Positions 1 to 37,852 of a stretch of 37,852 nt of DNA are shown here, piece by piece; position 1 is the stretch's first letter, and each line of letters starts with the position of its first letter. The position numbers and the translations under genes were made by a program. The stretch is from a virus. Where the stretch lies: positions 1-37,852 of the IMG/VR virus record IMGVR_UViG_3300021560_000036; one strand, given 5' to 3'. Below the pieces are notes generated by a model that had not been told where the DNA came from, did no database searches, and saw nothing but the letters and a program-made list of their open reading frames with translations.

Positions 1-123
1 AGCGGAAAGGTATAGGAACCTAAGACAATGGGCAAGGATCAAGGAGCTGTTGACGCGTGAGGATGTGGGGGAGATGGAGAAGATGGAGGAGGTGGAAGAA
101 AGAGGAGAGGGAACGGGAAAGGA
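1..123. repeat. Terminal direct repeat, left copy (identical to 37730-37852)
   Basis: Read base by base: the first 123 nt (agcggaaaggtatagg...gggaacgggaaagga) recur exactly as the last 123 nt of the window. Confidence 0.95.
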
Positions 124-160
124 TGTTGAAGTGGATTGCAAAGGGCAAGGGAAAGGATAG
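2..160 (+). CDS. 3' part of a small ORF that reads through the window junction (5' part at 37725-37852)
   Basis: The frame is open from 37686, with a GTG at 37725. Translation is VQAERYRNLRQWARIKELLTREDVGEMEKMEEVEERGEGTGKDVEVDCKGQGKG, ending at TAG 158-160. The next gene starts 5 nt later. Confidence 0.35.
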   Translation, partial: AERYRNLRQWARIKELLTREDVGEMEKMEEVEERGEGTGKDVEVDCKGQGKG

Positions 161-164
161 TTAG

Positions 165-470
165 GTGGCGACGAAGATTAAGGTGCTGGGGACTCCGTTG
201 TTGCAGGTGATTAATGACGAGAGTATCCGGCTGAAGAAGAACCGTACGCTGGATCCGAGGGTGGCCGACGAGTTGGTCGACCCGACCGGGATCCATCTTG
301 TCATCTTCTCAATGGTCCACAATGACAAGGAGATCAGGACACAGTTGATGCTGAAGATGAAGGGAAGCGACGAGCCGCGGAGGGGCTGGCTGGACATGAG
401 CTTCGAGCGGTTCCGGGACCTGCCGGAAGTGGAGGTTCCGATTGGGGATGGGGAACTGAACGGTGGATGA
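165..470 (+). CDS. Hypothetical protein (101 aa)
   Basis: GTG start 7 nt after AAGGA. The composition is non-repetitive and balanced (KVLGTPLLQVINDESIRLKK...). The stop overlaps the next start. Confidence 0.6.
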   Translation: MATKIKVLGTPLLQVINDESIRLKKNRTLDPRVADELVDPTGIHLVIFSMVHNDKEIRTQLMLKMKGSDEPRRGWLDMSFERFRDLPEVEVPIGDGELNGG

Positions 471-774
471 GGATGGAGTTGATGGTGTTGATGGGGATGG
501 TGGGGTGGATGGTGTAGATGATGTGGATGAGGTGGTCCGAGATGGGAGCCAGGTCGACTGGATCTCGATGGACCAGGACGAGATGAGGTTCGAGGTGGAG
601 CGGACGGGCGAGGCGTTGAAGCGGGACCCGGACCTTACCTTCTCGGCCAAGGCGCTGAACGGCCTCGACGTCCAGGTTCACCGCTTCGTCGCGTCGAGGA
701 TCATCCGGAGCTGGAATCACACCGGCAGCGCCCCGAAGAAGCTGAAGGTGACGGTGACGGTAGAGGTGGAGTAG
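463..774 (+). CDS. Hypothetical protein (103 aa) with an Asp/Gly/Val repeat N-terminus
   Basis: GTG start overlaps the upstream stop. The C-terminal two thirds look protein-like (DWISMDQDEMRFEVERTGEALKRDPDLTFSAKALNG...). It is the last plus-strand gene before the convergent terminator. The true start is uncertain. Confidence 0.5.
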   Translation: MDEDGVDGVDGDGGVDGVDDVDEVVRDGSQVDWISMDQDEMRFEVERTGEALKRDPDLTFSAKALNGLDVQVHRFVASRIIRSWNHTGSAPKKLKVTVTVEVE

Positions 775-796
775 GGAAGGGAGAGAGGAAGAGGAA

Positions 797-842
797 AGAA
801 GAAGACCTCCGGGGGGATGGTGTGCCCCGGAGGTCTTCTTCT
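797..842. terminator. Bidirectional hairpin terminator between convergent operons
   Basis: Perfect 18-bp inverted repeat AGAAGAAGACCTCCGGGG / CCCCGGAGGTCTTCTTCT with a 10-nt loop. It lies between the plus-strand gene end (774) and the minus-strand gene end (982). Confidence 0.7.
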
Positions 843-981
843 CTTGTCCCTCTCCCAATCGCAATCGGCCTGTTGTGGTCTGAGCCGATCCGCAGGAAGG
901 TTTTCCCTCTGGGGAGTGTACAGAGGTGGGATGAGAATGTCAAGGGAAGAGTGGAGGGGATTGAGGGGGATTACCTTCTTC

Positions 982-1254
982 CTACTCTTCTTCCTCCTCT
1001 TCTTCGAGCGTGGGGAGGAGGGAGAAGGGGTTGTCGGGGTGGAACTGGGAGTGCTGGTAGTCCCCCTCGAAGTCCTCTTCGGTGATGGTCTCGACGGTGA
1101 TGCGGAAGCGCCTGACCCAGTCCCGGCCGACGCAGCAGAAAGAGATCGGGGTGTCGCGCATCGGGTCATCGGAAAGGAACTCGGTGCGAGTGGGGGCTTG
1201 GTCGCGGACGGCCTGCCAGATGGTGAGGGCGAGGTCGTCAACGTGGATGGTCAT
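982..1254 (-). CDS. Hypothetical protein (90 aa) with a poly-Glu C-terminus
   Basis: ATG start 4 nt after the upstream stop. Protein-like sequence (MTIHVDDLALTIWQAVRDQ...). It is the last gene of the minus-strand module. Confidence 0.55.
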   Translation of the reverse strand: MTIHVDDLALTIWQAVRDQAPTRTEFLSDDPMRDTPISFCCVGRDWVRRFRITVETITEEDFEGDYQHSQFHPDNPFSLLPTLEEEEEEE

Positions 1255-1257
1255 GGG

Positions 1258-1965
1258 TTAGCTCCGATCTGACGCATGGGGAATTGAAGCTGTGTCCATC
1301 GGGATTGGCGCGAGAGCGGCGATAAGGCGCTCGGCGGTACGTCGGCCGATCCCTGGGACGGCCATAAGGTCTTCAGCGGTGCAGGTCCAGGCGATGGGGA
1401 CTCCACCAAAATGTTGATAGATTCGATCAGCCACTTGTGGCCCGACTGCCGGGAAGGACTGGAGGAGGTGACTAGCAAAAGCGCGGGTGGTTGTTCGCCC
1501 CCAACCAGACGAGACTTTAGGTCTTCGATCCAGAGCTGTGTGGTTTGCTTTTCCGAAGTAGATGGCAAGGCTAGTGATAGCCGAAGCTGTATCTTTAGTG
1601 GAGTCGGTGTGGACGACGACGATGGATCGGAGCTGGATTCCTGCCTCGATGGATCGGAGTTGGGCGCGCGTGACTTGGGAGTAGGAGGTTGAGAGAAGGG
1701 ATCCTTCCGTTGTGAAGGAGATCGGGCCTTCGATGATGAGGACTGCTTGCGTGAGGATGAGGGACGCTTCAATTTGGGCTAGCTCCTTTTGAAGACGGCC
1801 ATCCACGAGAGAGTTGAAGAAGTCGTTGATTTCCTTGCGCTGAAAGCCGACGCGAGCGGTCGGTGAGATGGAGAGGAAGTCACAGCCGTTGGACTCACAG
1901 AGCGGGGAGGTTGGTCCGAGGGTTGTGAGGTGGGGGGATTGTTCGGTGGGGGAGCGGAAGATCAT
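1258..1965 (-). CDS. ERCC4 (XPF/Mus81/Hef)-type structure-specific nuclease with a C-terminal helix-hairpin-helix
   Basis: The segment GCDFLSIS...VGFQRKEINDFFNSLVDGRLQKELAQ matches the ERCC4 signature GDXn-ERKxxxD...GRL..Q, with Q in place of E. C-terminal LMAVPGIGRRTAERLIAAL is an HhH motif. Confidence 0.65.
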   Translation of the reverse strand: MIFRSPTEQSPHLTTLGPTSPLCESNGCDFLSISPTARVGFQRKEINDFFNSLVDGRLQKELAQIEASLILTQAVLIIEGPISFTTEGSLLSTSYSQVTRAQLRSIEAGIQLRSIVVVHTDSTKDTASAITSLAIYFGKANHTALDRRPKVSSGWGRTTTRAFASHLLQSFPAVGPQVADRIYQHFGGVPIAWTCTAEDLMAVPGIGRRTAERLIAALAPIPMDTASIPHASDRS

Positions 1966-1986
1966 TGAAGGGGATTGGAGATTGGG

Positions 1987-2352
1987 TTAGTAGACGTGCT
2001 GGGGGTTGTGGCGTGTCTCTGTCTCGATGAACGTGGTGACGAAGTTACCGATGTGGAGAATGCCGTTGCAGTGCTGGAGGTAGGCATGTCCCCGGTCGTC
2101 GGTCTTGGTGACCTGGTTGGGGCAGTAGTCACAGTCGTAGGGGTAGTCGATGTCATCCGGGAGCCAGAAGGCGTGGCAGGTGGAACAAAGGAGGACGCCG
2201 GAGATGGTGCGCCGGATCTCGGTGTAGGGGGATGGGATGGGGTTGGGGTCGGGATCGGTGTCGGAGTTGAGGAGGGGATCGGCGGAAAGGGGATCGGGGT
2301 AGTCGGAGTCGGAGTTGGAGTCAGGGTCGGAGTCGGAGTCGGGGTCGGTCAT
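1987..2352 (-). CDS. Small Cys-rich (zinc-ribbon-like) protein with an Asp/Pro/Ser repeat N-terminus
   Basis: CSTCH...CDYC...HCNG cysteine/histidine pairs. The N-terminal DPDSDSDPDSNSDSD is encoded by the GGAGTC/GGGGTC repeat run at 2270-2345. There is a 4-nt overlap with the upstream gene. Confidence 0.55.
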   Translation of the reverse strand: MTDPDSDSDPDSNSDSDYPDPLSADPLLNSDTDPDPNPIPSPYTEIRRTISGVLLCSTCHAFWLPDDIDYPYDCDYCPNQVTKTDDRGHAYLQHCNGILHIGNFVTTFIETETRHNPQHVY

Positions 2353-2687
2353 TCGGGAGTGGGGAAGAGGGCGACGCAGGGGCAGGGGTAGGAGTACTCG
2401 TTCGCGCCATGGACATAGACGGTGGCCTGGCAGGAGTAGCCGGGGGAGCCGGGTAAGCCGGAGGCGTAGTGGAGGGAAGTGGGATGGGAGCAGATGTCAC
2501 AGTCGGTGGGGAGAGTGGTAGGGGGATCGGTGGGGGGTTCGGGTTCGACTTCGGGATCGGGGGGTTGGGGATCGGTAGGGGGATCGGGAGTTGGTTCGGG
2601 GTCAACGGGGTCAACGGGGTCAACGGGGTCAGTCGTTGTTGATTGTGTTGAGGCAGAGGTGCTCGGTGCTCCACCAGTACCAGCCAT
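2349..2687 (-). CDS. Small Cys-rich protein with a (DPV)n / Pro-rich N-terminus
   Basis: CDIC...C...CPC pattern. The N-terminus contains DPVDPVDPVDP, encoded by a 9-bp tandem repeat. The start is uncertain because it overlaps the upstream ORF by 59 nt. Confidence 0.5.
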   Translation of the reverse strand: MAGTGGAPSTSASTQSTTTDPVDPVDPVDPEPTPDPPTDPQPPDPEVEPEPPTDPPTTLPTDCDICSHPTSLHYASGLPGSPGYSCQATVYVHGANEYSYPCPCVALFPTPE

Positions 2688-2901
2688 CGTTCAGTGTCCT
2701 TTCGCCATAGAGCCAAGCCTGATATGCAAAAGCGTCCTGTTCCCCTTCGGGAACAGTGTTCGAGGGGCCTGATAACGCAGCAAACACAGATGCAGGCATC
2801 CCCACTGTCTGTGCCAATTGAGCGTTCTTAAACTGCCACTTTCCTCCGTATGCAGTCGTAGGGTCAGCATGAGATTCATGATCGGCGATGCACCTGCCCA
2901 T
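2629..2901 (-). CDS. Hypothetical protein (90 aa)
   Basis: Non-repetitive, Trp-rich sequence (AFAYQAWLYGERTLNDGWYWWSTEHLC). Confidence 0.5.
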   Translation of the reverse strand: MGRCIADHESHADPTTAYGGKWQFKNAQLAQTVGMPASVFAALSGPSNTVPEGEQDAFAYQAWLYGERTLNDGWYWWSTEHLCLNTINND

Positions 2902-3008
2902 CGGTGAATGAAGGACCTGGGATTGGGTCGGGATCGAGGAGGGGTGCAGGGGCGGGAGAGCAAGGATGAGCGGGAAGAAGGGGGTAACCAGCCTCCCCGC
3001 GCGCGAGC

Positions 3009-3314
3009 CTATGTCACTGGCCTTCCCTCACCCGCGGGGGGCTCCGGGTTGGCAGGGTTGGCCGGTTCGGTGAGTTCGAGGCGGCACGGCCAGATGTAGT
3101 CGGTCTCGGCGGTCGAGCAGTCCACGCAGTAGGGGTGCCAGGCCCCGATCACCGCTCCCCTGCCGTCGTTGTTGTCGACGTAGGCGGGCGTCCAGTGCGC
3201 GACGTGGCCGTGGGAGAGGACGCGGTCGGGCGGCTTGATGGTGACGTCCTCGGTCAAGGGGAGGGGGGTGAGTTCGGGGAGCGGCGTGGTCATTGGATCT
3301 ATTGGATCTGCCAT
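3009..3314 (-). CDS. Small Cys/His-rich protein (101 aa)
   Basis: SHGHVAHW...HPYCVDC...WPC pattern with a Pro-rich N-terminus. It is in series with the other small Cys-rich ORFs. Confidence 0.5.
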   Translation of the reverse strand: MADPIDPMTTPLPELTPLPLTEDVTIKPPDRVLSHGHVAHWTPAYVDNNDGRGAVIGAWHPYCVDCSTAETDYIWPCRLELTEPANPANPEPPAGEGRPVT

Positions 3315-4081
3315 CCAGCGACTCCTTTCAGATAGGTGAGCGGGAATGAGATCATGGGTTCGCCTATATGGAGAGGTCGTCCACGGTCTTTGACACTGGT
3401 GTAGAGGTACCGTCCTCTGAGGTCTTTATGGAGAAAGAGAGTCGAATCGAATTGGTGCTTGAGTCGCTTCTGCCCACTAGGTTTATGCCCAACTCCTCCA
3501 AACACCGAAATTGTTTCACGATCATCCCCAACGCTGCTCCTGCCGCCACCGCTTCCCGTTGATCGAGCAACCGGATCAGCAGTTGAGCAAGCGATAATGT
3601 GACACGGGGACTTATAGATGAATGGTCGCATAAAGGAAGAGTACAACTTATTGATGTACTTCCAGTCGGTCCACCCTCCGAACTCTGTATCGCGTTGAAG
3701 CTCGGTCTTGACACGGAGGAAGAAGGACCCGGTGTCTTCCCCGAAGACTTCCTGGGTGTAGTACTCCTGGACCGCGGGCCAGGCTTCTGAGGCAAGGTCA
3801 CAGACAAACCAATCATCACGATGGAGCTGAGGGAAGATTTTGGAGAGAGCGTCCCCGTACTCAGGCCACTCATACACCTCGAAGACGCTGATGTTTGAGA
3901 GACCATTGAGCGCGACGGATTTCGTATAGGACTTGTCGTTGTCGATAACGTAGATATGGGAGGGAGACTGAGTAGCGGAAAGCAGCTTGCCGAGTTCGGT
4001 GACGGCGTGGGATTTGCCGCAAGCCGGTTCGGAATAGAGGAGAATCCGTTCGCGCGCGGGAATGGAGGAGATAAAGGGCAT
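3299..4081 (-). CDS. Sak4-like (AAA_24 / RecA-fold) recombination ATPase
   Basis: Walker A is LLYSEPACGKSH. A hydrophobic strand plus Asp (WFVCDLASEAW) serves as Walker B. The length and context (next to a PD-(D/E)xK nuclease) are typical of phage Sak4-type ATPases. Confidence 0.6.
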   Translation of the reverse strand: MPFISSIPARERILLYSEPACGKSHAVTELGKLLSATQSPSHIYVIDNDKSYTKSVALNGLSNISVFEVYEWPEYGDALSKIFPQLHRDDWFVCDLASEAWPAVQEYYTQEVFGEDTGSFFLRVKTELQRDTEFGGWTDWKYINKLYSSFMRPFIYKSPCHIIACSTADPVARSTGSGGGRSSVGDDRETISVFGGVGHKPSGQKRLKHQFDSTLFLHKDLRGRYLYTSVKDRGRPLHIGEPMISFPLTYLKGVAGWQIQ

Positions 4082-4326
4082 TAGTTGTTCCCAGTCCCAC
4101 TCTGATGATGAAGGTGGGAGGGGTGGGAGAGGTCGGAGAGACGGGAGGGGAGGGATGGGTGAGAGGGGTTGGAGCGATAACCGGCCAGAAATCCTTCCAG
4201 ATAGTCGGAATGGCGCTGGCAGATCCGGAAGTCGTCATGGGTTGTATTGGTCGTATTGAGTGTAAGTTCCCCACAGCATTCAGAGAAGTCGGGACAGTTC
4301 TGCTTGAGGGTGAGCCATTCATTCAT
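4081..4326 (-). CDS. Small Cys-rich protein (81 aa)
   Basis: Internal ATG (MNEWLTLKQNCPDFSECCGEL...ICQRH) overlaps the upstream stop by 8 nt. Its stop overlaps the Sak4-like start (TAATG). Confidence 0.45.
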   Translation of the reverse strand: MNEWLTLKQNCPDFSECCGELTLNTTNTTHDDFRICQRHSDYLEGFLAGYRSNPSHPSLPSRLSDLSHPSHLHHQSGTGNN

Positions 4327-5356
4327 TGACGCCTTCCGCAGTAGGTGTGGGAGCGTCGGTTGGAGACGGGACTTTTTCGGCATCTTCGCTCACTTTCTCA
4401 ACTTTCTCAATTGTCAGACGGGATGATGGGACCGAGGTGGCATATCGCTCGTAGATCCCCTCCGACTTCAGATAGGCGGCGACGGAACGGGTGTCGAGAC
4501 GGGTGGTCCGGAACTCTGAGTAGGAGAAGCGGAACTGCCCGACCCGGCCCTTCTGGACATCGGAGGTAGAGATGTTGGCCTTGATCTGAGTCTTGAGCTT
4601 TGCCTCCAGGGATTGGAAGAACAGGACCCGTTCATGGACAGCATCGTAGGAGATGAGGGCGAGTTCGAGTTCGGGGTCGGTGATGGTCTCTTCCTCATGG
4701 AGCGTCCAGTAAGGGCAGTACTTACCCTTGGAGCAGGGAGGAAGATCGCCGGTGTTGTTGTAGGTCTTGAGGTTGGTGTCGTAGGAGGAGATGAGACGGT
4801 AGATGTCAAGCTCCCAACGCCTGATCTCGTCCCGTGTGAACTTCACCTCATGGAGATGCTGCCTGTCTTTGTCGTAGATGGCAAAGATGACCTGCTCTAC
4901 GAGAAAGTCGAACTCCTCGCTCAGACCCATGCAGTAGGCGGCAACCTGATAGAAGTACCCGTTGAATAATGGTAGTACGTCCCACGGTTCAGGAGAGAGG
5001 AACTTCTCGGTGTGATCGTGAGAGAGAGCCTTGATCTCGATGAGGGAGCGGGGTATCGGGACCGCCTTGAATGTAAAGGCGATGCCGTCGACGTGCCCCC
5101 GGACGACCGCACCAGCGACCGTAGCGTTGACTTCCTGTTGGGCGTGCGACACGTTATAGCCCCGGCGGACAAGCATGTCGCGGATGCTGCCCTCAAGGTC
5201 GTTGCCTTCATCAAAGGCGGTCTGGAGGGTAGATGGGATGGGAGAGGGAGGTTGCTGCTGATGTGCGTAGATGAAGGCACGAGGGCATGTAGATAGGGCA
5301 GACGCACGATAGATAGTACTTCCGCCATCCTGATAGACGATAGGCTCATCGGACAT
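4319..5356 (-). CDS. PD-(D/E)xK nuclease, RecB/Cas4-like phage exonuclease
   Basis: Motifs GHVDGIAF (D), LIEIKAL (ExK) and YFYQVAAY (QxxxY). There is an N-terminal Cys (STCPRAF) and a C-terminal CSKGKYC. Confidence 0.65.
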   Translation of the reverse strand: MSDEPIVYQDGGSTIYRASALSTCPRAFIYAHQQQPPSPIPSTLQTAFDEGNDLEGSIRDMLVRRGYNVSHAQQEVNATVAGAVVRGHVDGIAFTFKAVPIPRSLIEIKALSHDHTEKFLSPEPWDVLPLFNGYFYQVAAYCMGLSEEFDFLVEQVIFAIYDKDRQHLHEVKFTRDEIRRWELDIYRLISSYDTNLKTYNNTGDLPPCSKGKYCPYWTLHEEETITDPELELALISYDAVHERVLFFQSLEAKLKTQIKANISTSDVQKGRVGQFRFSYSEFRTTRLDTRSVAAYLKSEGIYERYATSVPSSRLTIEKVEKVSEDAEKVPSPTDAPTPTAEGVNE

Positions 5357-5394
5357 GGGCGTCCTTTCTCAAGATGGTGAGGGGGAGGGAAGGT

Positions 5395-5437
5395 GAGCGG
5401 CCCCCCAGACAACGGAAGGAAAGCCGGGGGGCCGCTC
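5395..5437 (-). other. Intergenic GC-rich hairpin (possible attenuator or RNA-processing site)
   Basis: Perfect 12-bp inverted repeat GAGCGGCCCCCC / GGGGGGCCGCTC with a 19-nt loop, between gene end 5498 and gene start 5356. No U-tract follows on the minus strand. Confidence 0.4.
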
Positions 5438-5497
5438 AGGGGCAACGCTCGGGTTGGGGGAGGAGATGCCACGTCTACCAGCCCTTTCCCCGTTGGC

Positions 5498-6031
5498 TCA
5501 AGCAGCCGACGTTGCCTCCCTCTGGGCAGAGCGAGCGGCGGCGGCGTGCTTGGCTCGCTCTGCGGCCCTCTGAGCCGCTTCCAGACGCTCCGTAAGCTCC
5601 TGGGGCGTGGCGGGGCGTACGAAGCGTGTATGGACCTTCCAGAGGCCTGTGGGGGCATTCTGGGAGTCCCGACCCTCCACAGCGACAACCTCCCAGATCT
5701 GCGCGGGTTGGGTCTTCTTCAGCCGGGTGTTAATTGTACGCGCCCTGACTCGTGCCCGCTTGGCCGCTTCTTTGGAATCTCCGTCGGCGCTGAACTCGTA
5801 GAGTCGTGCCCAACGGCCCGGAGTGTTGACGAGGAAGGCGAGATATTCCTCCCACGCCAGGACGACCTTCTTCTCGCGAGTTGCACGGACGGGCTTTTCG
5901 GGTGGAGCCTCGAAGTCGAGAGACAGACCGTCCAACTCGGGTGAGTCGGGGAGTGAGCTGTAGACGATCTCCAGCTCCTCGGGTAGCGGCTCATCGTCGT
6001 CAAACTCCAACTCGTCGTTCAAATCAGGCAT
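5498..6031 (-). CDS. Hypothetical protein (177 aa) with an acidic N-terminus
   Basis: ATG start. Protein-like middle section (VVLAWEEYLAFLVNTPGRWARLYEF...) and a basic helical C-terminus. Confidence 0.6.
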   Translation of the reverse strand: MPDLNDELEFDDDEPLPEELEIVYSSLPDSPELDGLSLDFEAPPEKPVRATREKKVVLAWEEYLAFLVNTPGRWARLYEFSADGDSKEAAKRARVRARTINTRLKKTQPAQIWEVVAVEGRDSQNAPTGLWKVHTRFVRPATPQELTERLEAAQRAAERAKHAAAARSAQREATSAA

Positions 6032-6053
6032 TGGTGGTTCCCTTCAAACTGGG

Positions 6054-6812
6054 TTACTGATGATGGGTAGCGTAGTACCCGCTGGAGGAACCGTCAATCA
6101 CGGACGAGGCGAGTTGTTCGTCGGTCTGGATGTTCGGGAGTTGCATGGCAGCGGAGATGAAGGTGCCGAAGTCGGCTGAGGAGCGAGCGAGGGCGGTGAG
6201 GGTGGACTCCAGGCTGCCGTTGGAGGGCGTGGATTGGAGGGTGGGTTGGACGGTGGGTTGGAGGGTCTGGGGCGGAGGTTCGGTCGGAGGGTTCTCGGAG
6301 GGTTGGATGACCTCTGCGCCTGCCTTCCCGTCGTCCTTGATGAAGCCGAGGAACTCGACCGGCATGCGACGGATGGTGGCCGGACGTTCTTGACTCTCGC
6401 CACGGGGCGTGAAGGCCGGGACGATCTCCTTCTCCTGCAAGTGCCACTTCGTATCGTTCCAGATGGTCGAGTCGAGTACGTCTTTGTCGAGGAGCCAGTC
6501 TTGACCCTTGGCCTCGATGGAGTCGGCGGCATAGGCGCACCAGCGCGAGAAGGTGGAGCGGTTGTTCGGCTTGGCCTTGTGCGGGTGAGTTGCAGTGATC
6601 CCGTCCGTTGATTCCCACCCCGATCCCATGGACAGGATCTCGCGGGCTTCCTCTTCCTCCTCATCGAAGCCTTCGAGGATGAGAAGGAGCTGTTGGCCGT
6701 TTTGATAGCCGAGGTCGTACCCGAAGGAAGCCTTGAGGATGTTGAAGTCGTACTCTTCGCGTAGACCACTGCCGAACTGAGCGTCGAAGATCGCTCGCTT
6801 TTCCGAAACCAT
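6054..6812 (-). CDS. Hypothetical protein (252 aa); ssDNA-binding role is possible from context only
   Basis: Clean ORF. It sits between the helicase and the nuclease/Sak4 genes, where phage SSBs are often encoded. No motif was recognised. Confidence 0.55.
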   Translation of the reverse strand: MVSEKRAIFDAQFGSGLREEYDFNILKASFGYDLGYQNGQQLLLILEGFDEEEEEAREILSMGSGWESTDGITATHPHKAKPNNRSTFSRWCAYAADSIEAKGQDWLLDKDVLDSTIWNDTKWHLQEKEIVPAFTPRGESQERPATIRRMPVEFLGFIKDDGKAGAEVIQPSENPPTEPPPQTLQPTVQPTLQSTPSNGSLESTLTALARSSADFGTFISAAMQLPNIQTDEQLASSVIDGSSSGYYATHHQ

Positions 6813-6821
6813 TGGGGACTC

Positions 6822-8425: not shown

Positions 8426-8430
8426 CCTGG

Positions 8431-8465
8431 GTTGTCAGTCGTCAGTTGTCAGTCGTCAGTCGTCG
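8431..8465. repeat. Heptamer tandem repeat GT(T/C)GTCA x4-5 (14-mer x2) in the RHH-helicase spacer
   Basis: GTTGTCA GTCGTCA GTTGTCA GTCGTCA GTCGTCG. On the minus strand this gives TGA every 7 nt. Confidence 0.85.
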
Positions 8466-9037: not shown

Positions 9038-9061
9038 GGCGAAAAGACCTCCTGGGGAGAA

Positions 9062-9351: not shown

Positions 9352-9375
9352 ATTTGGAACTTATCCACAGGGTAG

Positions 9376-29968: not shown

Positions 29969-30164
29969 GGAGGGAGGGTGGGGGTTGGGAAGGGGATTGG
30001 GAAGGGGATTGGGATGGGGATTGGGGTTGGCCGTCGTAGGCCCGGCGCTCGACCGAGAAGGTGAGGTCGACGCCATAGGCATCAGCGAGGGCAATAGCCG
30101 GGGTGCGGTCCTCGTAGGGGATGATGAAGGAGGCCTGAAGATCCCCGTTCGGTAAGAACTTCAT
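29952..30164 (-). CDS. Small protein (70 aa) or the C-terminal domain of the long frame-A ORF
   Basis: MKFLPNGDLQASFIIPYEDRTPAIALADAYGVDLTFSVERRAYDG is followed by a PQSPSQSPSQ tail encoded by the G-tract repeat at 29969-30030. Confidence 0.4.
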   Translation of the reverse strand: MKFLPNGDLQASFIIPYEDRTPAIALADAYGVDLTFSVERRAYDGQPQSPSQSPSQSPSQPPPSLHGNPQ

Positions 30165-31276: not shown

Positions 31277-31843
31277 ATGGTGAACATGGTGAACGTGGAG
31301 CGCGGCGAACAGGGTGCGTGGCACGCGGTGACCGGGGGGGACTTCGGTGACCGCGTGGCGCGCATCGTGCGCGTCGCGACAACGGAAGGAACGGACATGA
31401 GTGAATCAACAGCAGTAGCGGACGTGGTCGAGCTTCACGCGGACGAGCTATCAGAGACGGTAGCGAGTCTGGAGAGCATGCTTGCCGCGAAGCTCGCGGC
31501 CGGTGGGGCCGATGCGTCCAAGCTCTCGACGGGTGGGATGAGCGTCAAACTGATGCGAGCCCAAGCCGCGATCCGGAGCACTTGCGAGATCCTCGCCGAT
31601 GGGTTTGGGGAGTACGTGAGGACACTTCCCGCCCTCCCGGAGGATTTCAAGCTGGCGTTCGGGCCGATCACGGTCCCCGAGCCCTTGGACTTCTCCTCAA
31701 AGCGGGGGAGCGACAAAGACCAGCTCGAAACGTGGCTGAGCAAAGTGATCCCGCTCGGCCACGAGGACTACCGGTGGACGGTCAATCACCTGGGGCGCAA
31801 TGACCAGCTTCAGGCGAGCATCACGCGCAAGCGCGGACACTGA
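31277..31843 (+). CDS. Hypothetical early protein (188 aa)
   Basis: ATG directly follows GGAAGGAGGTGAC. A 9-bp duplication ATGGTGAAC x2 sits at the start. An alternative start is at 31397. Confidence 0.55.
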   Translation: MVNMVNVERGEQGAWHAVTGGDFGDRVARIVRVATTEGTDMSESTAVADVVELHADELSETVASLESMLAAKLAAGGADASKLSTGGMSVKLMRAQAAIRSTCEILADGFGEYVRTLPALPEDFKLAFGPITVPEPLDFSSKRGSDKDQLETWLSKVIPLGHEDYRWTVNHLGRNDQLQASITRKRGH

Positions 31844-31862
31844 GAGGGCTGGAAGTGCCATC

Positions 31863-31911
31863 GGCCCGGCTCCGGGGAGTGATCCCCGGAGCCGGGCCTC
31901 TTGGCATTTTT
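31863..31911 (+). terminator. Rho-independent terminator
   Basis: Perfect 15-bp stem GGCCCGGCTCCGGGG / CCCCGGAGCCGGGCC with a 6-nt loop, followed by TCTTGGCATTTTT. Confidence 0.8.
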
Positions 31912-32006
31912 GGACGGGTGGAAGGGATGGGGAAAGCAGGATCAAGTAAGCGCCGGAGTCGGTGAGTCGGTGAGTTGTGGAACGGGAGAACGGAAGGAGT
32001 TGGGGA

Positions 32007-32144
32007 ATGGCGTTAGTTGGGGTGTTGGTGTTCATCTTCGCAAGCTGGATGTGTTGGGCTTGGATCCAGGCGATGGGTGAGAGTGTCGCGAGTTGGTGGC
32101 GCGACAAGCAGGAGAAGGTGAAGGGGAAGGGGGAAGTGAGATGA
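32007..32144 (+). CDS. Small single-pass membrane protein (45 aa); not in the ORF track
   Basis: My own translation is MALVGVLVFIFASWMCWAWIQAMGESVASWWRDKQEKVKGKGEVR. GGAAGGAG lies 8 nt upstream. The stop overlaps the next ATG (ATGA). Confidence 0.5.
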   Translation: MALVGVLVFIFASWMCWAWIQAMGESVASWWRDKQEKVKGKGEVR

Positions 32145-32329
32145 AATGTCCGGAGTGTGGTGGGTTTGTGAGCCGCAGGGAGTTGAAGAGCGGCATGCAG
32201 AGTTGCTGTGGTGGGGACTTCGAGAAGCACGCGAAGGACGCGAGGGTTGCCGAGATTGTGTATTTGGATGAGGCGAGGAGGGTGAGAAGGGCAAAGGCGA
32301 CTGAGTTGTTCGACCAGGACGCGAGGTAA
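32141..32329 (+). CDS. Small zinc-ribbon protein (62 aa)
   Basis: MKCPECGG...CCGG pattern. It is translationally coupled to the upstream small ORF. Confidence 0.5.
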   Translation: MKCPECGGFVSRRELKSGMQSCCGGDFEKHAKDARVAEIVYLDEARRVRRAKATELFDQDAR

Positions 32330-32334
32330 AGTCA

Positions 32335-32406
32335 GATCCGTTCGTCTAGTGGTGAGGACGGCAGATTTTCAATCTGCAAACATGGGTTCGACTCCCATAC
32401 GGATCA
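32335..32406 (+). tRNA. tRNA-Glu(UUC): tRNA-Glu, anticodon UUC (72 nt, no encoded CCA)
   Basis: Cloverleaf folded by hand. The acceptor stem is GATCCGT/ACGGATC. The D arm is GTCT-AGTGGTGA-GGAC. The anticodon arm is GCAGA-TTTTCAA-TCTGC. The variable loop is AAAC. The T arm is ATGGG-TTCGACT-CCCAT. The discriminator is A. Confidence 0.88.
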
Positions 32407-32422
32407 CTGAGTTGGTACAGTC

Positions 32423-32487
32423 GGGAGGGTCAAGCGGTGTTCTTCCGTGCCGGTGTGACCCTCCCGCCTGTGCCAACTTGGCACAGG
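32423..32487 (+). ncRNA. Two tandem hairpins between the tRNA and the next gene (structured leader or processing element)
   Basis: The first hairpin is GGGAGGGTCA (32423-32432) paired with TGACCCTCCC (32456-32465). The second is CCTGTGCC-aactt-GGCACAGG (32467-32487). The RBS of the next gene follows. Confidence 0.4.
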
Positions 32488-32515
32488 TAGATGGTAACAA
32501 CGGAAGGAGTTTGTA

Positions 32516-32959
32516 ATGGCGAAGTACTCGACCAGAGATGGACGGGTGATCGTGGAGACGACGGACGAAGAGGATGTCGTCATCATGCTGACCGAGTTCA
32601 TCGTGGATATGGACGATCCCGCTACCTATGCGAGAGCCCAGATGCTGAAGATGGGGACGGGGTTGGCGAACATCTTCAGTGTTCTGGAGATGTCCCTCTG
32701 CCAGGAGTACGGGGAGGGAGCGCACAACGCGCTGAAGGCCGTGCTGATGAAGCGGCAGTCGGTGTGTGAGAGGGGAAGCCAGATGTTGGGCGTTCCCGAG
32801 GACGATGTGGAGTTCGTACGGGAGACGGCGAACTCCGTGGCCGAGATGCGTGTCCATGGGGATGCGCTGAAGGGGAAGCAGGTGAGTCAAGCGGAACGTG
32901 AGATCGAGAAGAAGGTGAACGATCTCGATTTCGGTAGGGACCTCCCCGGTTATTTGTGA
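32516..32959 (+). CDS. Hypothetical acidic early protein (147 aa)
   Basis: GGAAGGAG lies 7 nt upstream of the ATG. The sequence is protein-like. Confidence 0.65.
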   Translation: MAKYSTRDGRVIVETTDEEDVVIMLTEFIVDMDDPATYARAQMLKMGTGLANIFSVLEMSLCQEYGEGAHNALKAVLMKRQSVCERGSQMLGVPEDDVEFVRETANSVAEMRVHGDALKGKQVSQAEREIEKKVNDLDFGRDLPGYL

Positions 32960-33105
32960 TTGGGGCGGCACATCGGCCGCATCCATGCGTGAGTGTGGGT
33001 GCGGCCTCTTGTGCTGGGTGGTCCAGCACGCGGCACGGAGGGATCCGTGTTGTGGGTAATGCGGCGTACTCTCCGTGCCATCCAAACGGAAGAGGGAAAC
33101 AGGAG

Positions 33106-34662
33106 ATGCCAAAAGTTCAGTTGCAGTACAGCGAAGAAGAGCGGACACTCCAGCAGATCCGTGAATTGTTGGCGGCGGCGAGTGGAAACTTGAAGCAGGA
33201 CGACGACGTTATCTTCGAGGGCCGGAAGTATGTATTGCCGGAGCGAGAAGAGAGCAAGCGGACTGCCGGTATCCATTTGATCGAGATGGCCGACGAAGAA
33301 GAGGAGCGGCAGCGATTCTCACGGGAGTACAAGTACCGTCCATGGGATGGAGCTGTGGCGACTCAGCGGGTGTTGGTGAAGGCATACGGCCACATGCACC
33401 AGCGGAACAGCCTGTTTCAGATGGCGGAGACGCGAGAAGTTCAGGTTGGGCCGGACGAGTTGATCAGCGTGCCGTGGGGCGAGTTTGACGTTCCAGGGCT
33501 GGATGGCGTGGTGTTCGTGTCGATGGCGGCGAGCGGGGACAATGGACCCGTGTACCTACTGTCAGCAACGGGACCACGCCGTTTCCGAGACGAGATCAAC
33601 GGTGTTTTCAACTTGGTGCAGGAAGAACTTGAAGAGAGTTCGATCTACCGTGGCAAGGCGTTCAACGGTGCCGAGAACCCAGACTTCTTGGATCTAGGGA
33701 AGTTCGATCCCTCGAAGGTGGTGTACTCGGAGGAAGTGTTGACCGAGTTGGACGCCAATGTCTGGTGCTTGATCCGATACCCGGAGCAGAACCGGGAGCT
33801 GGGTTTGCCGTTGAAGAGGGCCGTGGTGTTTGAGGGTCCGTACGGGACTGGGAAGACACTCGGCGCAAAGTTGACCGCGAAGGTTGCGGTGGACAACGGC
33901 TGGACGTTCATTTTCGTGAGACCAGGAATTGACGATCTCCGGGTGGCATTTCAGACGGCGAAGTTGTATGCGCCGTGTGTGGTGCATGTCGAGGATGTCG
34001 AGACACTTGGCGGATATGGTGGCAGTAGGGACCATATGAGCCGGGTGCTGGACATGTTCGACGGGATCGACACGAAGGACTCGGATGTCATCTGCGTGGC
34101 GACGACAAACCACAAGGAGGAGATCCACGCCGGGATGTTGAGGCCGGGAAGGATCGACGGTGTGATCCATATCGGAGCGCTGGACGCTGCGGGGATACGG
34201 AGGCTTGTTGAAGTCTCAGTGTTGCCGGGGCAACTGGAGGAAGAGATGGATTGGGCTGCCATTGCGGTTGCGATGGACGGCTACATGCCAGCTTTCGCGA
34301 AGGAGGCGATCAACCGGGCGCAGCGGTACATGCTCAGAAGGAACAAGGGCAAGATTGGACCGCTAGCGACGAGTGATTTCGTCCACGCCGCGAGGGGGCT
34401 GAGAACTCAGTTCGAGTTGCAGCAGAGTGCGAAGGACAAGCCAGAGGACAAGGGCTTGGACGGGTATGTGCGGGAGATGCTTGATGAGATCGTCACGGCC
34501 GCAAGTGATGGTATCAGGGAGGAGCTACCGGACATGGACAGTGCTGCGAGCGAGATTGTTGACCAGGTCCAGGGCAACACCCAGAGCGATATGAGGGAGT
34601 TGCTGAACGAGACGTCGGTGTATGACCAGAACGGAGAGTACTCCGGGAACTTGTCGGTCTGA
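33106..34662 (+). CDS. Classical-clade AAA+ ATPase (FtsH/Cdc48-like ATPase module, 518 aa) with unknown N- and C-terminal domains
   Basis: Walker A is VVFEGPYGTGKTLGAKL. The Walker B region is APCVVHVEDVETL (compare FtsH APCIIFIDEIDAV). Sensor 1 is ICVATTNH. The second region of homology is MLRPGRIDGVIHIG. Confidence 0.85.
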   Translation: MPKVQLQYSEEERTLQQIRELLAAASGNLKQDDDVIFEGRKYVLPEREESKRTAGIHLIEMADEEEERQRFSREYKYRPWDGAVATQRVLVKAYGHMHQRNSLFQMAETREVQVGPDELISVPWGEFDVPGLDGVVFVSMAASGDNGPVYLLSATGPRRFRDEINGVFNLVQEELEESSIYRGKAFNGAENPDFLDLGKFDPSKVVYSEEVLTELDANVWCLIRYPEQNRELGLPLKRAVVFEGPYGTGKTLGAKLTAKVAVDNGWTFIFVRPGIDDLRVAFQTAKLYAPCVVHVEDVETLGGYGGSRDHMSRVLDMFDGIDTKDSDVICVATTNHKEEIHAGMLRPGRIDGVIHIGALDAAGIRRLVEVSVLPGQLEEEMDWAAIAVAMDGYMPAFAKEAINRAQRYMLRRNKGKIGPLATSDFVHAARGLRTQFELQQSAKDKPEDKGLDGYVREMLDEIVTAASDGIREELPDMDSAASEIVDQVQGNTQSDMRELLNETSVYDQNGEYSGNLSV

Positions 34663-34672
34663 TGGTCTAAGG

Positions 34673-34713
34673 ACACAGGATTGCCCCTCGCGATGCGGGG
34701 GGTTTTCCTGTGT
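34673..34713 (+). terminator. Rho-independent terminator (nested hairpin)
   Basis: The outer stem is ACACAGGA/TCCTGTGT. The inner stem is CCCCTCGC-gat-GCGGGGGG, followed by TTTT. Confidence 0.7.
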
Positions 34714-34719
34714 TGTTAG

Positions 34720-34992
34720 ATGGATGGGATGGGAGTGAGTGGGATGGGTGAGTATGAGGATTACCCGGTGAGGGAACTGATCGCCGGAGCCAACGAAGCA
34801 GTGATGAAGGCCGCGCAGGAGGGGATTGAGGCGCATGTGTACTTCAAGGCAACCTGCCCGAAGTGTGGGGAACGGTGTGTGTTCAGCGTCGCGGACACGG
34901 TGTTCGAGCAGATGGAGTGCAGCGCGTGCGGATGGGAGTTCCCGTTTGTAGAGGGGAACTACATGCTGGTGTACGGCGGAGAACTGCCGTGA
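34720..34992 (+). CDS. Zinc-ribbon protein (90 aa or less; start uncertain, alternative ATG at 34744)
   Basis: CPKCGERC...CSACG are two CxxC pairs. The N-terminus is G-tract repeat. Confidence 0.55.
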   Translation: MDGMGVSGMGEYEDYPVRELIAGANEAVMKAAQEGIEAHVYFKATCPKCGERCVFSVADTVFEQMECSACGWEFPFVEGNYMLVYGGELP

Positions 34993-35954
34993 GTGGGGTT
35001 GGGAGTGGGTGGGAGTCGGGAGTAAGTGTCAGGCCCGAGGACGTCCCCAAGCTGAGGGAGTTGTTGGTTGGGGATTGGAGTGAGGGTGGGGTATTGGCCG
35101 AGATCGCCCCGATCTTGAATGTGAGTGGGGACGTGAATGAGTACTTCGCCGATGAGGAAAGGTTCTGGGCCGAGAAGGCGGACCTATGGTTTGTCGGTGA
35201 GGAGATGTGCGCGTTACTGGAGCACGCGAGGACAGAACTCCCCCCGACGACGTTGACAAGTGGGTTGGTGACCCATGATGGGAGTTACCGGAGTGCGGGG
35301 CTGGTGGTGTTCGCCGACCCGATTTTCGGGATGAGTGCGAAGCCTGATGAGCCGCCGATTCCGGTTGGAGCGATGACCTGGCACCCTGCCGAGTATTCCG
35401 GGTGGAATGCGGGGAGGGGGAGGATGGGGCTGAGTATTTTGCTGTACTTCGTTGAGCCGGGGGAGAAGCGGTTATTGCCGCTCGGTCGGGTGAGTTGGCT
35501 GGAGGGCGAGGACACCGATGCGCTATTAGGCGGGTTGAGTGAGTTGCAGGAAGCATCGATGGCCGAGGATCGAAGGACACTGGCCGCGATGCTGTTATTG
35601 GCGAGTCAGCCCGGTGTGGCGGAAGTGGGGGAGAAGCTGCCTCCGAGACAACAGAGGAGAGAGGCAGAGAGGAAGGGGAGGAAACTCAGCCCGGTGAGGG
35701 TGATCCGGCTGAGAGCTGCCGTGGAAAGGGAGAGGAGTGGGAGAGGGGATGGGAGTGGGAGTGGGGATGGAGATGGAGAAGGAGGGAGGAAGAGGGAGTA
35801 CCACCAGAGATGGGTGGTGACGGGGCATTGGCGGCAACAGGCGTACGGGAAGGGCTGGACACTACGACGTCCGAGATGGATCGCACCGTATGTGAAGGGC
35901 CCGAAGGAGGCGCCGATGGACACGAGGCCCACGGTAAAGGCATGGGTGAAATAG
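34989..35954 (+). CDS. Hypothetical protein (about 321 aa) with a basic C-terminal WVVTGHWRQQAYGKGW..RRPRWIAPYVKGP motif
   Basis: GTG overlaps the upstream stop (GTGA). The body of the protein looks protein-like. An internal GDGSGSGDGDGEGG repeat is present. Confidence 0.55.
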   Translation: MSGVGSGWESGVSVRPEDVPKLRELLVGDWSEGGVLAEIAPILNVSGDVNEYFADEERFWAEKADLWFVGEEMCALLEHARTELPPTTLTSGLVTHDGSYRSAGLVVFADPIFGMSAKPDEPPIPVGAMTWHPAEYSGWNAGRGRMGLSILLYFVEPGEKRLLPLGRVSWLEGEDTDALLGGLSELQEASMAEDRRTLAAMLLLASQPGVAEVGEKLPPRQQRREAERKGRKLSPVRVIRLRAAVERERSGRGDGSGSGDGDGEGGRKREYHQRWVVTGHWRQQAYGKGWTLRRPRWIAPYVKGPKEAPMDTRPTVKAWVK

Positions 35955-35964
35955 GAGATAACAC

Positions 35965-36156
35965 ATGACAAGAGTGACGATGGTGGTTTGCGACCTGTGC
36001 AAGACGTCGTTCAGAGAGTCAAACATGACGGTGACAATGACGATCCGTCGCGGGTTCAGCGGTGATCCACAGGAGATGGACCTCTGTGAGGACTGTTTCC
36101 AGGGGTTGCAGGAATGGATTGGGAAGAGGAAGGAGAAGGGGATGGGGAAGGGATGA
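35965..36156 (+). CDS. Small zinc-binding protein (63 aa)
   Basis: AGGAGA lies 6 nt upstream of the ATG. CDLC...CEDC pairs are present. The C-terminal KEKGMGKG tail is encoded by the 26-nt repeat. Confidence 0.6.
   Translation: MTRVTMVVCDLCKTSFRESNMTVTMTIRRGFSGDPQEMDLCEDCFQGLQEWIGKRKEKGMGKG
36128..36153 (+). repeat. 26-nt exact repeat GGAAGGAGAAGGGGATGGGGAAGGGA (second copy at 37692-37717)
   Basis: Compared base by base. Both copies encode a KEKGMGKG C-terminal tail. Confidence 0.9.
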
Positions 36157-36785
36157 AGAGGAGGAGGGCTGGAGTGGCAAGACGTCGTTCTCCGATGAGG
36201 GTGAGGGAGGCTGGAGGCGAGACTGAGTGGTGGAGAAACCCGCCCTACACGTTAATGCTGATGGCCGAGTTGTGGGCAATGGGTGGGGTGTATCGGTCAA
36301 GGAACTGCACCAGGGAGATCATCGAAGCCGCAAACACAAGGGCAGACGGGTTCGGGATCAAGCCTATCTCGAAGAGTACGCACAGCGGGACGATGACGTA
36401 CTTGCAGAGGCAGGAGCTGGTGGAGTGCAAGTTCGAGCGGGTCAGCGAGAGGACGAACAACAAGCGCATCGTTGAGACCAAGCTCACGGCGAAGGCAAAG
36501 GAGAAGTTCGGGGCGGCCATCCAGGAATACCTGAACCAAGAGGGGATGCCGATTGGTGAGACGGAGATCGGGATGGGGATCGGGATGGGAGTTGGGAAAA
36601 TTGGGGTAGTTGGAATCGGAGCTGCCCTTGTCGCTGTGAACGGGAAAGGAGAAGGAGAAGGGGAAGGGGAAGTGGAGGTGATGGAGGAGCTGAGGTCGGA
36701 GAACGTCATCCTCCGTCGAACACTGGTGAAGGTGGTTGGGAAGCTGGATCCGGCTCAGATCATTGAACTGATTATCGAAAGGTAA
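36153..36785 (+). CDS. Winged-helix (MarR/PadR-like) DNA-binding protein with a Gly-repeat/hydrophobic segment and a C-terminal coiled coil
   Basis: The ATG overlaps the upstream stop (ATGA). TMTYLQRQELVECKFERVSERTNNKRIVETKLTAKAKEKF fits the wHTH recognition-helix plus wing pattern. Confidence 0.45.
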   Translation: MKRRRAGVARRRSPMRVREAGGETEWWRNPPYTLMLMAELWAMGGVYRSRNCTREIIEAANTRADGFGIKPISKSTHSGTMTYLQRQELVECKFERVSERTNNKRIVETKLTAKAKEKFGAAIQEYLNQEGMPIGETEIGMGIGMGVGKIGVVGIGAALVAVNGKGEGEGEGEVEVMEELRSENVILRRTLVKVVGKLDPAQIIELIIER

Positions 36786-36791
36786 GTGAGC

Positions 36792-37115
36792 ATGCCAGGA
36801 CACGCGAAGAACGTCCCGACTGCGGTGAGACGTGCGAGTGACAATAGCGTCTTCTGCCGGGCTATTGGTCATGCGTGGGTGAAGTTCCCGACCGATGACT
36901 GGGAGCCACAGCTAGCGAGCTTGCAGTACAAGCCAATGTCGTTCCAGTGCCAGAACTGTGGGACGGTGAGGCGAGATCTGTGGCAGAGGGGGAGCGGAAT
37001 ATTGCAGAACCGGGTGTATGTGTACCCGGATGGGTATGTGTTAGGGCATTTGAATCACGGTGAAAGGACCGCGAAGGAGACGTTCAGGGCCGAGTTCATT
37101 GAACGAGAGGAGTAG
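36792..37115 (+). CDS. Hypothetical Cys/His protein (107 aa)
   Basis: C..GHAW...CQNCG pattern. The sequence is protein-like. Confidence 0.55.
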   Translation: MPGHAKNVPTAVRRASDNSVFCRAIGHAWVKFPTDDWEPQLASLQYKPMSFQCQNCGTVRRDLWQRGSGILQNRVYVYPDGYVLGHLNHGERTAKETFRAEFIEREE

Positions 37116-37117
37116 AG

Positions 37118-37276
37118 ATGGAAGATGGGAATGGGGAGTGGAAGGATGTGGCGAACCCACGGAAGAGGGACGAAGACAAGGACGAGTCCATCTGCCAGAA
37201 CTGTGGGGCCAAAATCTACGCCGACCCCGAGTTGGGTTGGTGTCATGTCGCGAGTGAGAAAGTGGAATGCCCATGA
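37118..37276 (+). CDS. Small zinc-ribbon protein (52 aa); not in the ORF track
   Basis: My own translation is MEDGNGEWKDVANPRKRDEDKDESICQNCGAKIYADPELGWCHVASEKVECP. GAGAGGAG lies 5 nt upstream of the ATG. Confidence 0.5.
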   Translation: MEDGNGEWKDVANPRKRDEDKDESICQNCGAKIYADPELGWCHVASEKVECP

Positions 37277-37617
37277 GTGACTTGAGTGACTTGAGTGACC
37301 CGAATGAATGGGGCCTCGATTCCCTCCCCCCACGCCGGAAGGTAGGCGATGAAATCAGGCGGAAGATAGAGGCACTGAAGAAGAGTCCCGGCTGGTGGAT
37401 TCTGTATGGCCAGGAAATGCACCCGAGTAACGCTGCCAAGTTGAGGAAGCGTTTTCCGGGGATTGAAGTTGCGACCAGGAATCAGACGTTCGACGGAGAG
37501 AGGTTCGTGTGTGATGTCTACGTCAGGTGGCCAAGAGGAGAGGGAGAGGGAGAGGGAGAGGCGGACGGAGGAGGAGAGGGACCTCTACCGGGCGAAGGGA
37601 TTGCTGAGACACGCTGA
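37273..37617 (+). CDS. Hypothetical protein (114 aa)
   Basis: ATGA overlap with the upstream stop. The core is protein-like (GWWILYGQEMHPSNAAKLRKRFPGIEVATRNQTFDGERFVCDVYVRW). The C-terminal GEGEGEGE tail overlaps the next ORF. Confidence 0.5.
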   Translation: MSDLSDLSDPNEWGLDSLPPRRKVGDEIRRKIEALKKSPGWWILYGQEMHPSNAAKLRKRFPGIEVATRNQTFDGERFVCDVYVRWPRGEGEGEGEADGGGEGPLPGEGIAETR

Positions 37618-37744
37618 GACGTTGGTGTCGGCTGCGTTACAGGACATTGACGTGGTGACGGAATTGGTGAGAAAGTGGGAGTTGAGGAAGGGGAAGGAGA
37701 AGGGGATGGGGAAGGGAATGGGGAGTGCAAGCGGAAAGGTATAG
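37514..37744 (+). CDS. Coiled-coil protein (76 aa)
   Basis: MSTSGGQEERERERERRTEEERDLYRAKGLLRHAETLVSAALQDIDVVTELVRKWEL... ends in the KEKGMGKGMG tail. Confidence 0.45.
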   Translation: MSTSGGQEERERERERRTEEERDLYRAKGLLRHAETLVSAALQDIDVVTELVRKWELRKGKEKGMGKGMGSASGKV

Positions 37745-37852
37745 GAACCTAAGACAATGGGCAAGGATCAAGGAGCTGTTGACGCGTGAGGATGTGGGGG
37801 AGATGGAGAAGATGGAGGAGGTGGAAGAAAGAGGAGAGGGAACGGGAAAGGA
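37725..37852 (+). CDS. 5' part of the junction-spanning small ORF (continues at 2-160)
   Basis: See feature 2-160. The reading frame is continuous only if the two window ends are joined through the 123-bp repeat. Confidence 0.35.
   Translation, partial: MQAERYRNLRQWARIKELLTREDVGEMEKMEEVEERGEGTGK
37730..37852. repeat. Terminal direct repeat, right copy
   Basis: Identical to 1-123. Confidence 0.95.

Follow-up and report, generated by a model that had tools for sequence, protein, structure and literature searches.

Organization of the genome

The stretch of DNA analysed here, called the window throughout, comprises 37,852 nt of a virus record (IMG/VR record IMGVR_UViG_3300021560_000036, positions 1 to 37,852), and all coordinates refer to it. 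Its + strand, the strand as presented, carries about 75% more G than C, and this excess, which is the subject of the present report, was found in genes of both directions. The first 123 nt of the window (1-123) match the last 123 nt (37730-37852) exactly, and the sequence derives from a 37,870-nt contig assembled with MEGAHIT (k141). Because of this end duplication and the type of source contig, we conclude that the window is a complete, circularised phage genome of 37,729 bp. The duplication itself is an assembler k-mer overlap and does not point to a direct terminal repeat.

The genes form a long minus-strand block and a shorter plus-strand block (Table 1). Taken as a circle, the plus block runs from 31.2 kb to 0.77 kb, and most of its genes are unannotated. 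The gene list that we used matched the depositor's independent gene calls. Minus-strand genes occupy 73.5% of the genome and plus-strand genes 16.5%, and the coding sequence is divided 82:18, in agreement with an initial annotation, made by reading the letters, which had put minus-strand transcription at about 80%.

Table 1. Genes and other features of the window, with their strand and the basis of their assignment
Feature	Coordinates	Strand	Content or basis
Final two plus-block genes, past the circular junction	165..774	+	
Minus-strand gene block	982..30164	-	recombination and lysis genes at 0.98-10.4 kb; structural and packaging genes at 10.8-30.2 kb
ERCC4-HhH nuclease	1258-1965	-	
Recombination/helicase module	3299..8425	-	
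Sak4-like annealing ATPase	3299-4081	-	
Cas4/RecE-like exonuclease	4319-5356	-	
DinG/XPD-like helicase, split	6822-7532 and 7436-8425	-	ResIII/DEAD N-terminal part, Helicase_C_2 C-terminal part
Amidase endolysin		-	
SU10-type adaptor	16984-17664	-	PF24175
Portal, major capsid protein, large terminase		-	homology; PHROG matches for major head protein and terminase
Reversed-skew segment	30571..31008 (438 nt)		C 193, G 64, skew -0.50
Promoter-like site	30950-30921	-	
Plus-strand gene block, presumed early	31277..37617	+	continues over the circular junction to 165-774
tRNA-Glu(UUC)	32335..32407	+	ARAGORN and Rfam (68 bits)
AAA ATPase	33106-34662	+	homology
phrog_15934 and phrog_4480 proteins		+	homology

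The portal protein contains the domains PF16510 and PF23899 (P22/SU10-type), and the P22/SU10-type portal, the SU10-type adaptor, the major capsid protein and the large terminase were found in the window in the conserved order. Because of these portal domains, the PF24175 adaptor, the gene order and the genome size, the phage belongs to a large uncultured podovirus-like family with genomes of about 36-38 kb. A nucleotide search (megablast) against cultured phages returned zero matches and the best protein match of the portal among cultured phages reached 22% identity; therefore no cultured relative or model for this phage exists.

Excess of G on the + strand in both gene orientations

The + strand of the window contains 7,417 A, 8,270 C, 14,494 G and 7,671 T, which corresponds to a GC content of 0.601, a GC skew, (G-C)/(G+C), of +0.273, an AT skew of -0.017 and a purine content of 57.8%. 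The GC skew was positive in 74 of 75 windows of 500 nt. When the sequence was divided into 630 rows of 60 nt, G exceeded C in 552 and fell below it in 62, and in 263 rows G was at least twice as frequent as C. The sign of the skew is thus single over the replicon save for one reversed segment of 438 nt. An excess of this size is far beyond chance; it is real, very strong and rare. The initial annotation had reported a + strand that is G-rich whatever the gene direction on the basis of rows counted by hand, and our counts reproduced 14 of 14 such rows, for example those starting at 19001 (G27/C9), 8101 (G23/C6) and 33421 (G27/C12), and including the three rows described as near parity (5101, 5161 and 26401, with G/C of 19/18, 19/19 and 19/20). 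A window-wide skew near zero, which would have spoken against that report, was not observed. Long open reading frames (ORFs) with G-rich first codon positions were present on the + strand inside the minus block, and these correspond to the spurious ORFs described there.

The excess does not change its sign with gene orientation. At codon position 3 the + strand skew was +0.50 in minus genes and +0.32 in plus genes, so that the flip at the divergence point that a codon-usage effect would be expected to give was absent at block level. At fourfold degenerate sites the + strand skew was +0.66 in minus genes (95% confidence interval (CI) 0.64-0.69, n = 5188) and +0.44 in plus genes (95% CI 0.37-0.50, n = 935), with a + strand composition of A.164, C.125, G.621 and T.090 in the former and of A.149, C.206, G.525 and T.120 in the latter. 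Within the minus block the fourfold skew was +0.56 for recombination and lysis genes and +0.73 for structural and packaging genes. Recombination genes are usually early or middle genes; here they individually showed values of +0.35 to +0.88, the same sign as the late genes on their strand. Among the genes with at least 60 fourfold sites, 32 of 33 were positive, the sole exception being the gene at 30239-30838. Non-coding DNA behaved in the same way, with a + strand skew of +0.25 in the minus block, where 14 of 14 segments were positive, and of +0.42 in the plus block, where 9 of 9 were. The spacers of the minus block were positive although Shine-Dalgarno sequences pull in the opposite direction, and the purine-rich spacers 1-164 and 471-567 reached a GC skew of +0.71.

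Codon families with six members provided a view of the same effect for which third positions are not needed. Arginine was encoded by CGN and AGR codons in a ratio of 457:39 in minus genes and 80:80 in plus genes, and serine by TCN and AGY codons in a ratio of 664:61 and 35:70, respectively; the choice between these codons follows the DNA strand. The odds of G over C at fourfold sites, 4.97 in minus genes and 2.55 in plus genes, could be split into two terms, one of about 3.6 for the strand and one of about 1.4 for coding, and the latter agrees with the baseline of about 58% pyrimidine-ending fourfold codons in the family. Coding strands are C-rich in the minus block and G-rich in the plus block. 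Since the same sign was found at the fourfold sites of both blocks, in recombination, lysis and structural genes and in non-coding DNA, the skew is a property of the DNA strand and not of gene direction, and the earlier statement that it does not follow transcription is borne out.

Many short tandem repeats, G-rich and in frame, with periods of 6, 9 or 12 nt were seen on the + strand in genes of both orientations (for example at 9216-9245, 24056-24097, 27891-27935, 29979-30030, 35728-35799 and 37686-37724), and C-rich versions occurred only within the reversed segment (30564-30819). A second, smaller C-rich patch at 9248-9501, with a net C excess of 42 over 253 nt, adjoins a (GGGGAA)5 repeat and consists of the spacer upstream and the start of a glycine-zipper membrane protein gene (9376-9657). 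No dinucleotide in the window showed strong strand-specific depletion beyond base composition. The footprint of a context-specific deaminase was considered and rejected, since TC was not depleted (observed/expected 1.21).

The reversed segment is the only sizeable one of its kind and ends in a sharp sign switch at about 31008. The segment spans the leader of the first leftward gene (30239-30838, minus strand) and the 5' part of that gene, which encodes a small protein with an N-terminal membrane helix, together with the promoter-like site. Cumulatively, the skew is lowest at 31008 and highest at 30570, an arrangement resembling the origin and adjacent terminus of the model for one-directional chromids (PMC7858055). 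We did not adopt an origin and terminus at these positions, because L001/L104 (see below), the other genome with a high skew, has neither the reversed zone nor this gene, and because the coding strand of the gene is rich in G even in L086, a relative that has no global skew. Two minus-strand ORFs in different frames, 29952-30164 and 30239-30838, were both matched by a single 227-aa ORF of the relative L083, which may reflect a split or a frameshift of the window gene near 30320-30340. Between the divergent genes we observed a 20-nt direct repeat, GTGCRTGKWCAKGCAAGGGG, at 31060-31079 and 31125-31144 (80% identical, 65 nt apart) and several TGTACA-containing palindromes; these are possible operator or origin elements.

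The bias was also visible in the proteins. Plus-strand proteins were enriched in E, M, K, V, C, R and G and minus-strand proteins in N, Q, P, T, Y and S, and the amino-acid usage of the two strands differed with a chi-square p of 7e-55 and correlated with the G-minus-C of codon positions 1-2 (Spearman rho 0.67), a comparison confounded by the fact that functional class goes with strand. The enrichment previously proposed thus has the direction claimed, except that D and W were barely enriched in plus-strand proteins. The further claim that the skew reshapes the two halves of the proteome was overstated: the conserved portal hardly differs from its low-skew orthologues, with PTASHQ residues at.363 versus.351 in L086 and GVEDRW residues at.323 versus.324. 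Most of the effect probably falls on poorly conserved proteins and on low-complexity linkers that consist of G-rich hexamer repeats in frame. The tRNA-Glu(UUC) gene is located in the Glu-rich plus block (Glu makes up 9.8% of plus proteins and 4.7% of minus proteins).

The skew among relatives and control phages

Relatives were gathered with alignment-based scans; single-protein scans of viral and metagenome contigs gave nothing. In 80 IMG/VR loci of the same family (loci are denoted by L and a number) the skew of the corresponding strand had a mean of 0.05, in the same direction as in the window, and the only strong value was that of L001, 0.23; the window is the extreme among about 88 loci. 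As controls we used 80 loci from other phage families with a homologous AAA ATPase. Their whole-locus skew had a mean of +0.03 (SD 0.057) with a single outlier, L104, at +0.288. L001 and L104 turned out to be the two ends of one contig. Of the control loci, 39 had genes in two directions, and in 27 of these the fourfold skew flipped with orientation, the coding strands being slightly C-rich.

A flip was also seen in L174 (QGNH01001354.1), a 54%-identical family member in which G-ending codons are avoided in both orientations. Strong avoidance of G-ending fourfold codons is shared by the lower-GC members L174, L002, L003 and L006 (GC about 0.48), and of these four, only L174 has genes in both directions. 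Avoidance of this type is a codon-usage effect that mimics the late-gene skew of the window without any genome-wide skew. Because the controls flip and L174 avoids G-ending codons both ways, ordinary codon usage does not account for the pattern of the window. Across the family and its neighbours, coding strands show an ordinary preference for C-ending codons, to which the clade of the window adds a DNA-strand term.

Within this clade the GC skew was graded. It was +0.27 in the window, +0.12 in L082 (78% portal identity to the window), +0.10 in L088 (about 78%; it shares a contig with portal P0003 and its sample differs from that of L082), +0.09 in L083 (75%), +0.255 over 28.9 kb in L001 and L104 taken together (70%), +0.15 in L084 together with L087 (68%), +0.15 in L085 (67%) and -0.035 in L086 (65%). 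In L001/L104 the fourfold skew was +0.48 in both orientations, and the same-sign pattern was also present, but weaker, in L087 and L088. The nearest distinct relative is thus at 78% portal identity; contigs of the same strain differ by 0-3 nt. The skew is restricted to this small clade, ranges from -0.04 to +0.27, does not track portal similarity and is evolutionarily labile. Higher GC content goes with a higher skew (r = 0.83, n = 8, points that are not independent). Between L086 and the window, G on the + strand goes from.253 to.383 and C, T and A each fall by 0.03-0.05; at late-gene fourfold sites of the window, + strand T, C and A stand at 27%, 47% and 61% of their values in L086.

Three small early ORFs on the plus strand (34744-34992, 165-470 and 568-774) have homologues in L104 and none in L087 or L088, and one of them gave a weak zinc-ribbon match. 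These unannotated ORFs are the only gene-content correlate of high skew, and it is too weak to interpret. The two ORFs of the DinG/XPD-like helicase overlap by 97 nt and are separate in L087 and L088 too, so that the split looks conserved in these relatives. For the 340-aa early protein encoded at 34932-35954 (plus strand) a precomputed annotation gives PF26125 (AcrVA2-like), whereas our own Pfam scan of a longer version of the ORF found no match at E<=0.01; in PHROGs the protein falls in phrog_15934, whose function is not known. Two family members were binned in Acidimicrobiales metagenome bins, and the host is probably a member of the Acidimicrobiia. The JGI metagenome series of the relatives come, as we assume, from soil and peat, and on that assumption thermophily is not supported as a cause of the skew; searching the literature for the accessions gave no result.

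Explanations of the strand asymmetry

Our preferred explanation, to which we give a probability of about one half, is a strand-asymmetric mutation pressure tied to one-directional replication, combined with the ordinary preference for C-ending codons. If the two strands were always copied differently, as in one-directional theta or rolling-circle replication, the + strand would always be the same kind of product or template, and the asymmetric copying would create a mutation pressure that makes it G-rich, presumably by pushing A, T and C all toward G. A modest preference for C-ending codons on every coding strand would add to this, reinforcing the strand effect in the minus genes, with 82% of the coding sequence, and partly cancelling it in the plus genes. 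In bacteria and mitochondria the strand that is single-stranded for longer becomes G-rich, and by this rule the fork would move from left to right in window coordinates. The + strand ratio of G to A at fourfold sites was 3.79 in minus and 3.53 in plus genes, and that of C to T was 1.40 and 1.72, with overlapping CIs; G/A above C/T is the direction expected for an excess of C-to-T and A-to-G changes on the + strand, that is, for a strand more often single-stranded.

Known systems offer comparisons for such a process. One-directional replicons have one sign of skew around the whole replicon whatever the gene orientation, as does the window, and a single-signed skew is an accepted signature of one-directional replication, with Pseudoalteromonas chromids (PMC7858055) and about 30% of huge phages (PMC7162821) as comparators. 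The AT skew of the window tends the opposite way, with A at least as frequent as T on the G-rich strand, and its one-directional mode of replication is presumed. Phage P2, for which a nick at the replication origin is annotated in GenBank, showed a same-sign fourfold skew in both orientations (+0.03, +0.13, +0.20); the genome-wide skew of the window is about five times that of P2 (0.27 versus 0.05). It is also about ten times the GC skew of +/-0.03 reported for windows of alphaproteobacterial chromosomes (PMC9836097). Orientation-linked skew, as produced by codon usage or Szybalski-type purine loading and seen in phages whose genes all lie on one strand, such as T7, resembles the coding term of the window (odds about 1.4), and a modest preference for C-ending fourfold codons was found across the family and in unrelated phages as well. 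Skew of that kind flips with gene direction, however, whereas the dominant component in the window does not, and the purine loading of sense strands is violated by 82% of its coding sequence. The heavy and light strands of vertebrate mitochondria, which replicate by strand displacement, are comparable to those of the window in the size of the fourfold GC skew, in the effects on codons and amino acids and in G/A exceeding C/T on the G-rich strand. They differ in that the G-rich strand of mitochondria is rich in T as well and has a skew that grades with single-stranded time, while the + strand of the window is T-depleted and purine-rich and shows no gradient. On this comparison see also PMC3269012.

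Several observations weigh against a replication-linked mutation pressure. The composition is not the classical one. Under replication or single-strand deamination of the classical type the G-rich strand is also T-rich, as in the bacterial leading strand and the mitochondrial heavy strand. Here T was less frequent than any other base at the fourfold sites of the + strand (0.09-0.12), and A was at least as frequent as T, with (A-T)/(A+T) of +0.29 in minus and +0.11 in plus genes. The ratio of purines to pyrimidines at these sites was 3.7 in minus and 2.1 in plus genes, a purine excess that is left unexplained: transitions alone are insufficient, and strand-biased transversions or selection would be required. 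Plain cytosine deamination does not describe this spectrum, since the + strand gains purines in general. T-to-G changes through oxidised dGTP built preferentially into one nascent strand are a possible source, and these would raise the GC content too. A gradient with distance from the putative switch point was absent, both for all genes (Spearman rho 0.28, p = 0.12) and for minus genes alone (rho 0.16, p = 0.42). No polymerase, primase, rolling-circle initiator or origin was recognised for the window, and a search for genes indicative of a replication mode against Pfam, PHROGs, NCBIfam and PDB sequences yielded only recombination and helicase genes. With the fork direction suggested above, replication would run head-on into 82% of the coding sequence. 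In the conserved architecture gene class coincides almost completely with strand, and the coding strand of the gene at 30239-30838 is rich in G in the window as well as in L083, L084, L085 and L086. The strand-asymmetric process put forward in the initial annotation is supported in part, by a DNA-strand skew of the same sign in both orientations. One of its candidates, a long-lived single-stranded intermediate, was not supported: by analogy with mitochondrial DNA this predicts a G+T-rich strand and a positional gradient, neither of which was found.

The G-richness of the coding strand of 30239-30838 leaves room for a different explanation, which we consider unlikely and rank second. Transcripts that start from the divergent promoter region would be G-rich in sense both ways and all others C-rich, according to transcription unit or temporal class; the cause would act on RNA or be linked to transcription, and the uniform sign of the + strand would be a by-product of the fixed gene layout. 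The reversed segment, in which the gene and its leader are G-rich in sense and preceded by a promoter-like site, fits such a scheme. So do the homologues in L083-L086, where the fourfold skew of the coding strand is +0.07 to +0.33 and the neighbours are C-rich, even in L086, and the higher fourfold skew of structural than of recombination and lysis genes suggests an expression-linked component. On the other hand, the reversed segment reaches about 60-100 nt upstream of the promoter-like site, and the scheme needs two forces of opposite sign that were amplified together in the same lineages. The spacers of the minus block are C-rich in sense in every segment, so translational selection cannot be the force acting on late genes; the recombination genes behave like late genes, and the opposite-strand (early) block of L174 is not rich in G at third positions. 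Transcription-linked asymmetry as it is known makes sense strands G-rich, and 82% of the coding sequence here is C-rich in sense. The joint forces, the C-rich spacers, the recombination genes and the early block of L174 are our reasons for placing this explanation after the replication-linked one.

Selection on a strand-level property of the sequence, in place of mutation bias, appears less probable still. It could act through C-rich late transcripts and a G-rich template, which would give weak R-loops and weak RNA self-structure, especially with head-on replication; G-rich RNA favours R-loops (PMC3787257), and C-rich transcripts would disfavour them. Alternatively, G-runs or G-quadruplex motifs could be maintained on one strand. 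All 35 G-quadruplex-type motifs that we counted lay on the + strand, versus 18.8 +/- 3.5 in mononucleotide shuffles, an excess of only about two-fold against a weak null. The in-frame G-rich hexamer and nonamer repeats on the + strand, present in both gene classes, and the purine excess that transitions leave over would also suit selection. The skew is, however, strongest at fourfold sites and weaker in non-coding DNA, its grading among close relatives and its link to GC content resemble a drifting mutational equilibrium, and no function could be assigned. An assembly or sequencing artefact or a chimeric contig, for which the assembler overlap at the ends might be cited, is effectively refuted by independent recovery of the sequence (a Logan contig 100% identical over 8,580 nt and an ENA contig with 3 mismatches in 14.7 kb), by intact genes with homology to a large family and by a 70%-identical relative from another sample with the same skew.

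Whatever its cause, the phenomenon is an extreme and atypical variant of the known replication-type strand bias, and its kind is not new. Inferences on the replication of uncultured phages and plasmids routinely draw on strand asymmetry, and the window provides a clean, extreme case in which genes of both orientations on one replicon allow mutation-type strand effects to be separated quantitatively from codon-usage effects, with close relatives that range all the way from unskewed to very strongly skewed. Its G- and A-rich, T-poor composition fails the standard deamination model and points to another strand-biased mutational process or to selection against G-rich late transcripts. For annotation the case is a warning: such a strong skew generates long spurious antisense ORFs, and early and late genes with opposite codon usage can mislead gene callers, host prediction from codon usage and composition-based binning. 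Tentatively, and with rather less confidence than in the replication-linked pressure as such, we suggest that a small clade of tailed dsDNA phages from soil may recently have acquired a mode of replication or repair with such asymmetry that one strand gains G, and purines in general, to mitochondrial-like levels with a non-classical spectrum, for example through strand-biased T-to-G and C-to-T-to-G flux such as might arise from oxidised dGTP in the continuously made strand. If this is true, the trait would be labile enough, varying over its full range among phages with 65-78% portal identity, for its genetic cause to be mapped.

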